This document shows, in pieces, positions 1 to 25,039 of a stretch of 64,000 bases of DNA; the stretch's first letter is position 1; every line of letters starts with the position of its first letter. The stretch comes from Escherichia coli (GTDB lineage: Bacteria; Pseudomonadota; Gammaproteobacteria; Enterobacterales; Enterobacteriaceae). The stretch lies in the NCBI RefSeq assembly GCF_003334385.1, contig NZ_QOWN01000006.1; one strand, 5' to 3'. The notes under the pieces were generated by a model. It worked only from the letters and a program-made list of their open reading frames with translations. It ran no database searches and was not told where the DNA came from. Made by a program: the position numbers and the translations under genes.

Positions 1-1164
1 TGGGCACCCATCCCTGCGGTCATCGCGGCGGGTATTCTCTCCACTTACTATTTTGGCATTACTGGCACCTTTTGGGCTGTCACGGGTGAATTTACCCGTT
101 GGGGCGGCCAGCTCCTGCAGCTGTTTGGCGTCCATGCTGAAGAGTGGGGTTATTTTAAAATTATCCATCTGGAAGGATCGCCATTAACCCGCATCGACGG
201 GATGATGATCCTCGGCATGTTTGGCGGCTGCTTTGCCGCAGCGCTGTGGGCCAACAATGTCAAACTGCGCATGCCACGCAGCCGTATCCGCATTATGCAG
301 GCCATTATTGGCGGTATTATCGCTGGTTTTGGCGCGCGTCTGGCAATGGGCTGTAACCTGGCGGCGTTCTTTACCGGTATTCCTCAGTTCTCGCTGCATG
401 CCTGGTTCTTTGCCATCGCCACTGCCATTGGTTCATGGTTTGGCGCACGCTTTACCCTGCTGCCCATCTTCCGTATTCCCGTGAAAATGCAGAAAGTTTC
501 TGCCGCCTCACCGCTGACGCAAAAACCGGATCAGGCGCGGCGTCGTTTTCGTCTCGGGATGCTGGTCTTTTTCGGCATGCTGGGCTGGGCGCTGCTCACG
601 GCGATGAACCAACCCAAACTGGGGCTGGCAATGCTGTTTGGCGTCGGCTTTGGTTTACTGATTGAACGTGCGCAAATCTGCTTTACTTCGGCGTTCCGCG
701 ATATGTGGATCACCGGACGTACCCACATGGCGAAAGCAATCATTATTGGTATGGCGGTGAGTGCCATCGGGATCTTCAGTTACGTACAGTTAGGTGTTGA
801 ACCCAAAATCATGTGGGCGGGACCAAACGCGGTAATTGGTGGTTTACTGTTTGGTTTTGGCATCGTGCTGGCAGGCGGCTGCGAAACCGGTTGGATGTAC
901 CGCGCGGTAGAAGGTCAGGTGCACTACTGGTGGGTCGGTCTGGGCAATGTGATCGGCTCAACCATTCTGGCGTATTACTGGGATGATTTCGCTCCGGCGC
1001 TGGCCACCGACTGGGACAAAATCAACCTGCTGAAAACCTTTGGCCCGATGGGTGGCCTGCTGGTGACATATTTGCTGTTGTTTACTGCGCTGATGTTGAT
1101 TATCGGCTGGGAAAAACGCTTCTTCCGCCGTGCGGCACCGCAGACTGCTAAGGAGATCGCATGA
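1..1164 (+). CDS. yedE: YedE-family inner membrane protein, 5' end truncated by window edge
   Basis: Frame 1 is open from position 1 to the stop at 1164; hydrophobic polytopic protein; position directly upstream of yedF as in E. coli. Confidence 0.8.
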   Translation, partial: WAPIPAVIAAGILSTYYFGITGTFWAVTGEFTRWGGQLLQLFGVHAEEWGYFKIIHLEGSPLTRIDGMMILGMFGGCFAAALWANNVKLRMPRSRIRIMQAIIGGIIAGFGARLAMGCNLAAFFTGIPQFSLHAWFFAIATAIGSWFGARFTLLPIFRIPVKMQKVSAASPLTQKPDQARRRFRLGMLVFFGMLGWALLTAMNQPKLGLAMLFGVGFGLLIERAQICFTSAFRDMWITGRTHMAKAIIIGMAVSAIGIFSYVQLGVEPKIMWAGPNAVIGGLLFGFGIVLAGGCETGWMYRAVEGQVHYWWVGLGNVIGSTILAYYWDDFAPALATDWDKINLLKTFGPMGGLLVTYLLLFTALMLIIGWEKRFFRRAAPQTAKEIA

Positions 1165-2878: not shown

Positions 2879-3092
2879 TCTCGTCTCCCGGATAATTTCT
2901 GGTAGCAAAGCCTACCAGTAAGTCAATAAGACAAAGGCGCTAAATAACAACAAAAAAACGGGTTTATTGGCGGATAGAAAAAAACGAAAGCACAAATAAT
3001 GGGAGCGTCAATTTTTCGAGTTTGCTGACCCGGGAGTGAGTCTTGTTCCACTTTGCCAATAACGCCGTCCATAATCAGCCACGAGGTGCGCG
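2879..3092. promoter_or_regulatory. Divergent fliE / fliF promoter region (class 2 flagellar promoters expected)
   Basis: 214-bp intergenic region between divergently transcribed fliE and fliFGHIJK; no individual boxes pinpointed. Confidence 0.45.
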
Positions 3093-6417
<3,325 letters not shown>

Positions 6418-15090: not shown

Positions 15091-15177
15091 AAATCCCGAC
15101 CCTGAGGGGGTCGGGATGAAACTTGCTTAAGCAAGAAGCACTTAAAAAATTCGTTACACCAGGAAATCTGATGTGTT
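15091..15177 (-). ncRNA. dsrA: DsrA small regulatory RNA (Hfq-dependent regulator of rpoS and hns)
   Basis: Reverse complement reads AACACATCAGATTTCCTGGTGTAACGAATTTTTTAAGTGCTTCTTGCTTAAGCAAGTTTCATCCCGACCCCCTCAGGGTCGGGATTT, matching the recalled DsrA sequence including the terminal GC hairpin and U-tract. Confidence 0.9.
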
Positions 15178-22314: not shown

Positions 22315-23010
22315 TCAGCCAGCGGATGAAAACGCATCTATCACCTTGTGATCGACACCTTCATTCTCCCCCGCCAGTTCGGCACTGAGCTTCGCCATAA
22401 ACTCGACTAAAAAATGCGCGTTGTGCTGCGCCAGCTGCTTGCCTCTTGCGGTTTGCATGGTTTGCGGTAGCTTCAGCAACTTAGTCTGGAAATGATCCAG
22501 CGCGTAGCGTTTATCATCAAGCGGGCGATGCTGTGCGAGCGGATCTTCACCATCAAACAGCGCCACGCCCAATGCCCCTGAAACGGCAAACACGCGCGCC
22601 AGGCCAATCGCTCCCAGGGCTTCCAGCCGATCTGCATCCAGGACGATTTTAGCTTCCGTGGTTAAGGGGGCGATTTGCGCGCTGAAACTGTGAGCGGCAA
22701 TGGCATGACAAACGGCCTCAATTTTCTCCGCCGGAAATTGCACGAACTCTTCACGGAGCAGGCGACGCGTCTCTTCTGCTGCCAGGATTGAAGAACGCTG
22801 CCTTTGCGGATGATTTTTCGCCAGGCTCACAATATCGTGAAAATAACAGGCGGTTAAAATCACCAGCATATCGACGTCGTCATCTGCCGCCAGCTTCTGT
22901 GCCGTAGCCCAGACGCGGCGAAAATGACACACGTCATGGGCCGCGTCCTGGTGCTGATGATGGTTTTTCAACCAATTTTCGAACTGTGCCTGCCAGTGTT
23001 GTAAGTCCAT
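22315..23010 (-). CDS. yedJ: HD-domain phosphohydrolase YedJ
   Basis: 231 aa with HD motif (YFHDIV). Confidence 0.9.
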
Positions 23011-23049
23011 ACGCGCTCCGTTGCCAAAGAGTCGCCACCTTAGCAGTTT

Positions 23050-23415
23050 TTATTCATAGCGTCTGCTACGTGCGGGACGAGGTCGGGTGTACCAGGCAAT
23101 GCTGCCTAACAATGCCCCGACCAGAGCCATAAATAAAAATCCGACCAGTGCCCCTAACCACTTTCCCGCGGTAGAGCCTAAATCGCTTTCAAATCCCGAC
23201 ACGGGGGCATCGGGGATCCGGCTCATCACCCAGATGTAACGCGCCATTGCCCAGACGAAATAGCCACACCATGTATAGAAAGCCCACAAAGCCAGTTTGC
23301 CGCCAGGGCTGCGAGAGAGTCTCTCTTCCATCTTTGTCGAACCGTATTCCATTTTGAGATAACCCGGAAAATTCAGACTTAGTACTATTATGTGATAAAA
23401 GTCACATTTTTCCAC
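23050..23415 (-). CDS. yedR: Inner membrane protein YedR
   Basis: Two transmembrane segments; start ambiguous (TTG 23433, GTG 23415, or internal ATGs); no clear RBS. Confidence 0.5.
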   Translation of the reverse strand: MEKCDFYHIIVLSLNFPGYLKMEYGSTKMEERLSRSPGGKLALWAFYTWCGYFVWAMARYIWVMSRIPDAPVSGFESDLGSTAGKWLGALVGFLFMALVGALLGSIAWYTRPRPARSRRYE

Positions 23416-23578
23416 ATTGGATGAGCCAGTCAAGACTCACTCATTTTTTGAACAAATAGATAATTTTTGCGCAACGGCAGTGAATACAGGAAAAATCGTT
23501 TTGAGCGATTTTATTTATCTTTGATATCGGCTTTATTAATTCATTTAATCAATATATTAGCACTGATTACAATTATAC

Positions 23579-23669
23579 CTTTTTATTATTCTGTGTCATG
23601 ATGCTTACGTTATTAGCCTTTTATCGTCTTGTTTATATTTTTTGGGCCGGCATGATGCCGGCTTTTTTT
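23579..23669 (+). ncRNA. rseX: Candidate RseX-like small RNA in the yedR-porin intergenic region
   Basis: Intrinsic terminator (gccggca-tga-tgccggc then seven T) at 23646-23669 with no + strand CDS to terminate; I recall RseX mapping between yedR and yedS; 5' end is a guess. Confidence 0.4.
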
Positions 23670-23980
23670 ATACCTTCATTAATGTGCGCGTGATCACACC
23701 AAGTGTTTAGCGCAACAATCATTGATACTCCCTATCTTTCCGCTTAACTCATAACATATTGATATACATTTATAATTTTCATGAATATTTATATTTGGAA
23801 TTCATGATTCTGAATTATATTAAATAGATTAGAAACATTTTGAAATCTTTTAAATACATTTGTTGCATGTAATCCTTAAAATAAAATGAAGTTCATAGAA
23901 TAGTATCCAAATGTGCTTTTTTTTGGATAACGGCACTTATTGATATATTCATGAAGATTATAATCACAAGGGAATACATA

Positions 23981-25039
23981 ATGAAAAGAAAAGTTCTGGC
24001 AATGCTGGTCCCGGCGTTATTAGTTGCTGGCGCAGCAAATGCGGCTGAAATTTATAATAAAAATGGCAATAAACTGGATTTGTACGGCAAGATGGTTGGT
24101 GAGCGCATTCTGACCGACCGTGAAAATGGTGAAAAAGGCGATAATTCTCAAGATACCTCTTATGCCCGTGTAGGCGTGAAAGGTGAAACTCAGATCAACC
24201 CTGAATTGACTGGTTACGGTCAGTTTGAACTAGACCTGGAAGCATCAAACAGACACAACCCTGACCAAACTCGTTTGGCTTATGCTGGTTTGAGTTACAA
24301 AGATTTTGGTTCATTCGACTATGGTCGTAATGTCGGTGTCGCGTATGATGCAGAAGCATTTACTGATATGTTTGTTGAGTGGGGCGGTGATTCATGGGCT
24401 GGTACTGACCTGTTCATGACCAACCGTACCAACGGTGTTGCAACCTATCGTAACACAGATTTCTTTGGCATGGTTGAAGGTCTAAATTTTGCTCTGCAAT
24501 ATCAGGGTAAAAATGAAGGTACAGGCAACTACAAAGCAAATGGCGATGGCCATGGTTTATCTGTAACTTACACTATTGACGGTTTCTCATTTGCTGGTGC
24601 TTACGCAAACTCTGATCGTACTGATTTCCAGTCTAGTGATAGTAAAGGTGAAAAAGCAGAAGTTTGGGCACTGTCAACAAAATATGATGCCAACAACGTC
24701 TATGCTGCTGTGATGTACGGTGAATCTCACAACATGAATTCCGACGACGGTGATGTTGTGAACAAAACACAAAACTTCGAAGTTGTTCTGCAATATCAGT
24801 TCGACTTCGGTCTGCGTCCATCCATCGGTTACTCCTATTCTAAAGCACTGGACGTAGCAGGTTACAAAGATTCTGATCGTCTGAACTACATTGAAATCGG
24901 TACCTGGTATTACTTCAATAAGAACATGAACGTATATACCGCTTATCAGATCAACCTGCTTGATAAGAGTGATTATGTTCTCGCTCATGGACTGAACACC
25001 GACGACCAACTCGCATTTGGTATCGTCTACCAGTTCTAA
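23981..25039 (+). CDS. yedS: General-diffusion porin of the OmpC/OmpF family (yedS-type), apparently intact
   Basis: Signal peptide MKRKVLAMLVPALLVAGAANA, beta-barrel repeats, C-terminal YQF; ORF track start 23951 trimmed to ATG 23981 with RBS. Confidence 0.8.
   Translation: MKRKVLAMLVPALLVAGAANAAEIYNKNGNKLDLYGKMVGERILTDRENGEKGDNSQDTSYARVGVKGETQINPELTGYGQFELDLEASNRHNPDQTRLAYAGLSYKDFGSFDYGRNVGVAYDAEAFTDMFVEWGGDSWAGTDLFMTNRTNGVATYRNTDFFGMVEGLNFALQYQGKNEGTGNYKANGDGHGLSVTYTIDGFSFAGAYANSDRTDFQSSDSKGEKAEVWALSTKYDANNVYAAVMYGESHNMNSDDGDVVNKTQNFEVVLQYQFDFGLRPSIGYSYSKALDVAGYKDSDRLNYIEIGTWYYFNKNMNVYTAYQINLLDKSDYVLAHGLNTDDQLAFGIVYQF

Follow-up and report, generated by a model that had tools for sequence, protein, structure and literature searches.

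The segment 23580..23669 on the + strand of the window (the whole stretch of 64,000 nucleotides of Escherichia coli DNA analysed here) is very probably the E. coli rseX gene, ending in its own Rho-independent terminator and with a functional capacity carried over from K-12; we would give this reading a probability of about 96%. The identification is based on a match to the Rfam model RF01401, on near-identity to the annotated K-12 gene and on an orthologous position. The gene has already been described, and nothing about it is new here. The gene and its flanks are as follows.

23580..23669 (+): rseX, RseX small RNA gene; 90 nt here and 91 nt in K-12 (RF01401; alignment to b4603)
23050..23352 (-): drpB (yedR), left flank, divergent from rseX (open reading frame; annotated drpB in near-identical genomes and in K-12)
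23981..25039 (+): yedS-type porin gene, right flank, intact here (open reading frame; 352-aa porin in E. coli 1919D62, yedS pseudogene in K-12)

Identification of rseX between drpB and the porin gene

We have scanned the whole window with the Rfam models under curated thresholds, which returned four matches in all. The rseX model matched 23580..23669 (+) with 96.8 bits and an E value of 4.9e-12 (gathering score of 50), and the match spanned model positions 1-94 of 94 without truncation. The scan also reported the DsrA sRNA at 15091..15177 (-), with 102.5 bits, and tRNA genes at 32494..32580 (-) and 33572..33644 (+). The distance from DsrA to rseX is 8.4 kb in the window and likewise 8.4 kb in K-12 (PMC9426594).

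The K-12 reference (NC_000913.3) annotates the ncRNA rseX (b4603) at 2033649..2033739, between drpB (b1963, formerly yedR) and the yedS pseudogene. This interval aligned exactly with window 23580..23669, the 5' and 3' ends being identical and 89 of the 91 positions the same. The two differences are an A at 23607, which is nt 28 in the 5' hairpin loop, where K-12 has C, and a tail of seven T against eight in K-12. Both were also seen in other E. coli strains and, on this comparison, the C-to-A change and the 7-U tail are ordinary polymorphisms. The order dcm-yedJ-drpB-[rseX]-porin-hchA was common to the window, K-12 and the 99.7%-identical E. coli strain 1919D62, with rseX lying on the same strand as yedS, between drpB (yedR) and yedS, as in K-12.

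The preliminary description of this DNA had placed RseX between yedR and yedS and had proposed an alignment with the K-12 sequence. The placement was borne out by three independent tests (RF01401 match, K-12 alignment and shared gene order), the alignment giving only 2 differences in 91 nt and identical ends. That description had also seen no + strand gene for the terminator to end; on the present identification, the gene that it ends is rseX. The terminator had seemed orphan because rseX is unannotated in the RefSeq/PGAP records that we checked (NZ_CP097883.1 and NZ_CP046009.1, both PGAP-annotated RefSeq records without an rseX feature). The importance of the result beyond a correct annotation is small: the strain has a K-12-like rseX allele beside an intact yedS-type porin gene. 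It also illustrates that a known sRNA is recoverable from sequence alone, without tools.

The spacer that holds the gene had been described as AT-rich and 540 bp long. Its AT-richness was confirmed, with a GC content of 0.295 versus 0.538 for the whole window. The length was not: about 628 bp separate the annotated start of drpB, placed at 23352 from NC_000913.3, and the porin ATG at 23981, and the 540-bp figure fits the TTG start at 23433 of the longest open reading frame (ORF).

Terminator and predicted fold of the RNA

A consensus terminator scan of 23000..24100 found one terminator-like site on the + strand. Its stem (23644..23664) has 9 bp, including six G-C pairs, and a 3-nt loop, and is followed by seven T at 23663..23669. 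This is the same element as the + strand terminator that had been placed at 23646-23669, and it was found by both scan and fold. The scan on its own is not above chance, one site being found versus 0.8 expected in shuffles; the terminator is considered beyond chance because of the covariance-model match (E = 4.9e-12) and its presence in 4880/5426 complete E. coli genomes. The parts of the RNA are listed below.

23580..23592 (+): RseX nt 1-13, the U-rich 5' end (without pairs in either the Rfam consensus or the predicted fold)
23593..23617 (+): nt 14-38, a weak 5' hairpin whose loop is nt 24-29 (Rfam structure line and minimum-free-energy fold)
23630..23643 (+): U-rich single-stranded tract preceding the terminator (UUGUUUAUAUUUUUU region; no pairs in either fold or Rfam structure)
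23644..23669 (+): rseX Rho-independent terminator, with its stem-loop at 23644..23664 and its T-run at 23663..23669 (terminator scan and fold)

A U-rich tract combined with the U-tail of the terminator is the usual Hfq-binding module of enterobacterial sRNAs. Folding of 23580..23669 gave a centroid structure made of the terminator hairpin alone (-14.6 kcal/mol), to which the minimum-free-energy structure added the weak 5' hairpin. The whole-RNA fold was marginally more stable than shuffles (z = -1.56). Across 14 Escherichia sequences the terminator stem was invariant, save for one G-U to A-U change. Nearly all variation within the RNA fell in the loop of the 5' hairpin, with single strains breaking two of its stem pairs. 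A covariation test on the Rfam structure with the 14 Escherichia sequences found no pair changed on both sides, the stems being almost invariant and hence uninformative. The unpaired nt 1-13 are identical to K-12 in the window, bases 6-9 differing between lineages, and the 5' "region 1" of RseX has been assigned a toehold role for fimB and ihfB (PMC8313858).

Conservation and distribution of rseX

Of 5426 complete E. coli genomes, 4880 carried the 651-bp spacer over 80% or more of its length. In E. coli S1-CAM-01-C drpB and hchA are separated by an IS3-family element (3051..4800 of that locus) that takes the place of rseX and the porin gene, and a replacement of this kind is one route to the absence of the spacer from about 10% of complete E. 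coli genomes. Variable loss of rseX in the E. coli-Shigella group has been reported (PMC3318445).

We have aligned the spacers of 11 E. coli strains, which shared 91-100% identity. Variation was found in 11 of the 91 RseX columns. They all lie in nt 6-9, in nt 21-28 (one stem base of the 5' hairpin and its loop) or where the T-tail varies in length; the tail has seven T in six strains, the window included, and eight T in the other five. The 55 nt from nt 29 to nt 83 (window 23608..23662), which hold the target-pairing region, the U-rich tract and the terminator stem, were invariant in 11/11 strains and the same as in K-12. In the rest of the spacer, 46/240 columns varied upstream of rseX and 46/312 downstream (about 15-19%). 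When 14 Escherichia sequences were compared, the block of nt 29-83 had four variable columns (nt 31, 58, 59 and 66).

A 24-nt core pattern was searched in one genome per prokaryotic species and occurred in five species representatives, all Escherichia; the pattern was exact with one free position and misses diverged homologues, so that this Escherichia-only result is a lower bound on the distribution. RseX homologues have been mentioned in Shigella or Citrobacter (PMC8313858). The five Escherichia representatives scored 89.6-95.2 bits with RF01401, and E. whittamii keeps the yedJ-drpB-rseX-porin order. The T6 run that precedes the hairpin (23638..23643) is T5 in four of the five.

Two E. coli strains, E10 and 160-11H1, presented a strongly diverged block (window ~23480..23607) that begins about 100 bp upstream of rseX and stops exactly in the loop of the 5' hairpin, the sequence beyond being identical to the window. 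In their 5' end (UGAU) and loop (AACCC) the RseX alleles of these strains are similar to those found in Escherichia sp. MOD1-EC7003 and E. whittamii. The pattern may reflect a recombination mosaic in which the 5' third of RseX exists in two classes of allele.

Predicted pairing with target mRNAs and proposed action

Pairing was tested against the K-12 ompC and ompA leaders (-40..+20) by a helix scan and a seed-restricted duplex prediction, which pointed to the two regions below.

23609..23622 (+): predicted ompC pairing region GUUAUUAGCCUUUU, nt 30-43 (helix with ompC -14..-1)
23625..23633 (+): candidate ompA pairing region CGUCUUGUU, nt 46-54 (predicted helix with ompA -15..-7)

RseX nt 30-43 and ompC -14..-1 (AGAGGGUUAAUAAC) are predicted to form 14 consecutive pairs, G-U included, with a dG of -14.4, and the ompC stretch involved covers the Shine-Dalgarno sequence. 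With the seed region (nt 25-45) the duplex energy was -16.5 kcal/mol, a value that none of 1000 dinucleotide-shuffled seeds equalled. In the four-column count over the 14 Escherichia sequences nt 30-43 vary at nt 31 only, and elsewhere in our analysis they are given as invariant in all 14.

For ompA, RseX nt 46-54 are predicted to form nine pairs with -15..-7 (AACGAGGCG), across the Shine-Dalgarno sequence (dG -9.9), an alternative helix being that of nt 29-36 with -19..-12 (8 pairs, dG -5.9). The seed region gave -11.1 with ompA, which is no better than shuffles, 12.5% of them doing as well. The candidate ompA-pairing sequence is identical to that of the K-12 RNA, for which repression of ompA has been shown experimentally (PMC8313858). 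The earlier statement that RseX represses ompA and ompC is supported by the literature on the K-12 RNA, with the ompC pairing also predicted here and the ompA pairing at shuffle level.

Two other pairing calculations were set aside. Duplexes of whole-length RseX with the full ompA/ompC leaders were meaningless, extending over about 80 nt and being no better than shuffles. The neighbouring porin was also tried as an RseX target, and pairing with 23921..24000 was at shuffle level for any third of the RNA.

The K-12 literature can be applied to the RNA of the window because the two sequences are virtually identical. RseX was discovered because, in multicopy, it suppresses the lethal effect of deleting rseP (Douchin et al. 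2006, via PMC8313858; PMC1851643), it represses ompC and ompA and also fimB and ihfB, and its binding to Hfq is known (PMC8313858). It is a primary transcript, not detectable in wild-type cells, and bands of about 91 nt and about 75 nt appear once H-NS is removed (PMC8313858). Even in K-12, expression of the chromosomal gene can hardly be detected as long as hns is present (PMC8313858; PMC1851643).

By analogy with K-12, the action of the gene may be pictured as follows. A sigma-70 promoter would yield a primary transcript of about 91 nt, the size known from the K-12 literature. This promoter would normally be silenced by H-NS, with StpA as a backup, because the spacer is very AT-rich. The transcript would bind Hfq through its U-rich tract and the U-tail of the terminator, and would pair with the translation-initiation regions of ompC, ompA, fimB and ihfB, the pairing blocking ribosome binding and lowering the levels of the target mRNAs. 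Overproduced RseX would rescue cells without the RseP protease because of this decrease in target mRNAs. The regulatory capacity of the allele in the window should equal that of K-12 RseX, since the 11 E. coli strains do not vary in nt 29-83, which are identical to K-12.

Promoter region and a promoter-like site on the opposite strand

The region immediately upstream of rseX was compared with K-12.

23540..23579 (+): rseX promoter region, -40..-1 (hexamers read from the sequence; 23541-23579 identical to K-12)

The 39 bases that precede the rseX start are thus the same in both genomes. The -10 hexamer is likely TACAAT at 23568..23573, with a weak -35 (TTAATC/TTTAAT) around 23544..23550. A simple promoter scan did not call the rseX promoter, because its -35 matches the consensus at 3/6 positions. 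In K-12 a sigma-70 promoter is backed by 5' RACE, and an H-NS site has been located at -42..-32 (PMC8313858).

A near-consensus sigma-70 promoter-like site was also observed on the minus strand, with a -35 ATGACA (23599..23594), a 16-nt spacer and a -10 TATAAT (23577..23572), giving 11/12 matches. Directed toward drpB, ~210 nt off, the site shares positions with the rseX -10 and with nt 1-20 of that gene. The -35 hexamer was invariant in the 14 Escherichia sequences, and the -10 was altered only in Escherichia sp. E1V33. The site could work as a bidirectional promoter or be a spurious one, within AT-rich DNA bound by H-NS. We consider it rather doubtful that it forms with the rseX promoter a back-to-back overlapping pair, firing toward drpB and into rseX. 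If it did, RNA polymerase bound on the minus strand would compete with rseX initiation, which, alongside H-NS, could help to explain the difficulty of detecting chromosomal RseX, and part of the conservation of the RseX 5' end would reflect promoter DNA rather than RNA function.

The overlapping open reading frame and other readings of the hairpin

The preliminary description had listed a 31-codon ORF without an obvious ribosome-binding site. This ORF is present in the ORF list.

23598..23693 (+): 31-codon ORF overlapping rseX, judged non-coding (ORF list; MMLTLLAFYRLVYIFWAGMMPAFFIPSLMCA)

In the 20 nt upstream of its ATG (CCTTTTTATTATTCTGTGTC, pyrimidine-rich) we have found no Shine-Dalgarno or other purine-rich motif. 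Among 16 Escherichia sequences the C-terminus occurred in three frames, because the length of the T-run changes, with ORF lengths of 31, 37, 42, 54 or 18 aa. Strains with seven T have the 31-aa form, ending in ...FF(I/M)(P/S)SLMCA, and E. coli SCPM, also with seven T, has 54 aa owing to a changed stop codon; in 8-T strains, K-12 included, the ORF reads ...FFYAFINVR... and has 37-42 aa; in the four Escherichia species representatives with T5 instead of T6 before the hairpin it stops at 18 aa. The frame diverges between strains and species after codon 15-24. Start codons also varied, with ATC in place of the first ATG in BCE-1 and the O25:H4 strain, and ATA in place of the second in seven other sequences.

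The conserved N-terminal part of the ORF had zero nucleotide changes in the 11 E. coli strains, third codon positions included, and in the 14 aligned Escherichia sequences a change or gap was found in three columns only (nt 31, 58 and 59). This conservation is best read as a constraint at the RNA level, and not as that of a coding sequence drifting at third positions.

Protein-level searches agreed with this. NCBIfam gave no family match for the 31-aa form, and for the 42-aa form only a meaningless weak one (E 0.045, 12 bits against a cut-off of 569). The exact 31-aa sequence was absent from a collection of 15 billion proteins, where the 42-aa form of the K-12 frame occurs only as automatic "membrane protein" or "hypothetical protein" GenBank calls. 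Such calls on the overlapping ORF were made because rseX had been left unannotated, and the "membrane protein" label in some GenBank records is an annotation artefact. At the position of the ORF there was no CDS in the K-12 reference or in the RefSeq records checked, and a literature search for ribosome profiling returned no report of translation within rseX. The ORF is very unlikely to be translated to any functional end.

The alternative offered by the preliminary description, a translated 31-aa hydrophobic peptide that would replace the sRNA function or add to it in the manner of the dual-function SgrS/SgrT, must be weighed on these data. Two tandem ATG codons are present, the first 15 or so codons (xxLLAFYRLVYIF) are kept in 16/16 Escherichia sequences, and the peptide is hydrophobic, as many genuine small membrane proteins are; yet the conserved part lacks synonymous variation, as expected from RNA constraint. 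The "membrane protein" and "hypothetical protein" names that some GenBank records give to the 42-aa K-12 version might speak for a protein, but they come from automatic gene calling, and no NCBIfam family stands behind them. Together with the missing Shine-Dalgarno, the three C-terminal frames and the variably lost start codons, this led us to abandon the peptide, to which we would leave only a very slight probability. It is also conceivable that the hairpin attenuates transcription within a long 5' leader belonging to the yedS-type porin gene, instead of ending an sRNA. The hairpin does have the orientation of the porin gene, lies 311 nt upstream of its ATG and belongs to a kind of neighbourhood in which regulatory RNAs are often found, that of omp genes (PMC1851643). 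However, the hairpin is a strong terminator whose tail has 7-8 U, neither scan nor fold showed an alternative anti-terminator structure, and the 311 nt from hairpin to porin ATG vary to the same degree as the remaining spacer (46/312 columns). The K-12 product is discrete, of about 91 nt, with a 5' end that indicates a primary transcript (PMC8313858). Furthermore, RseX is kept, and invariant, in K-12 although yedS is a pseudogene there, and its pairing with the ribosome-binding region of the porin is no better than shuffles. We regard an attenuator as even less probable than the peptide.

A functionless hairpin and T-run, arisen by chance in AT-rich H-NS-bound DNA, would be in line with the terminator scan (1 found versus 0.8 expected in shuffled sequence) and with native RseX expression being hard to detect (PMC8313858; PMC1851643). 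Chance does not account for a 55-nt block that is invariant in 11 E. coli strains while about 15-19% of the spacer columns vary, with only four variable columns across 14 Escherichia sequences, or for a covariance-model match with E 4.9e-12. Regulatory activity has also been published, as well as a Northern signal in delta-hns cells (PMC8313858). This reading, the least probable of all, is effectively already refuted by the conservation and the published experiments, and rseX is the reading that we retain.

Comparison with known small RNAs

RseX of the window has the same locus, ends, promoter region, pairing region, U-rich tract and terminator stem as K-12 RseX (b4603; RF01401). It differs in having A for C at nt 28 (23607), seven U instead of eight, and an intact yedS-type porin gene as neighbour instead of a pseudogene.

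With MicA and MicC, RseX shares Hfq-aided antisense pairing at the ribosome-binding sites of porin mRNAs, and also targets, namely ompA for MicA and ompC for MicC (PMC1851643; PMC1804206). MicA is induced by sigma-E, whereas RseX is silenced by H-NS and has no known envelope-stress regulator (PMC8313858). MicA and MicC are unrelated to RseX in sequence and are assigned to different Rfam families. Both are widespread among enterobacteria, whereas the exact pattern used here detected RseX in Escherichia alone.

Dual-function sRNAs of the SgrS/SgrT type, like RseX, are Hfq-dependent and contain a short ORF. In the case of SgrT this ORF comes with a ribosome-binding site, and its reading frame is conserved. 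The ORF within RseX has neither feature.

Variation in the flanking genes

The yedS-type porin of the window has 352 aa and starts with MKRKVLAML..., whereas the K-12 copy is a frameshifted pseudogene. In other strains the gene is truncated or IS-interrupted, and its PGAP names vary ("porin" or "ompC"). On the other side, drpB of E. coli MRSN346647 is annotated as two overlapping CDS fragments (19..313 of that locus), suggestive of a frameshift that lies either in the gene itself or in its assembly.
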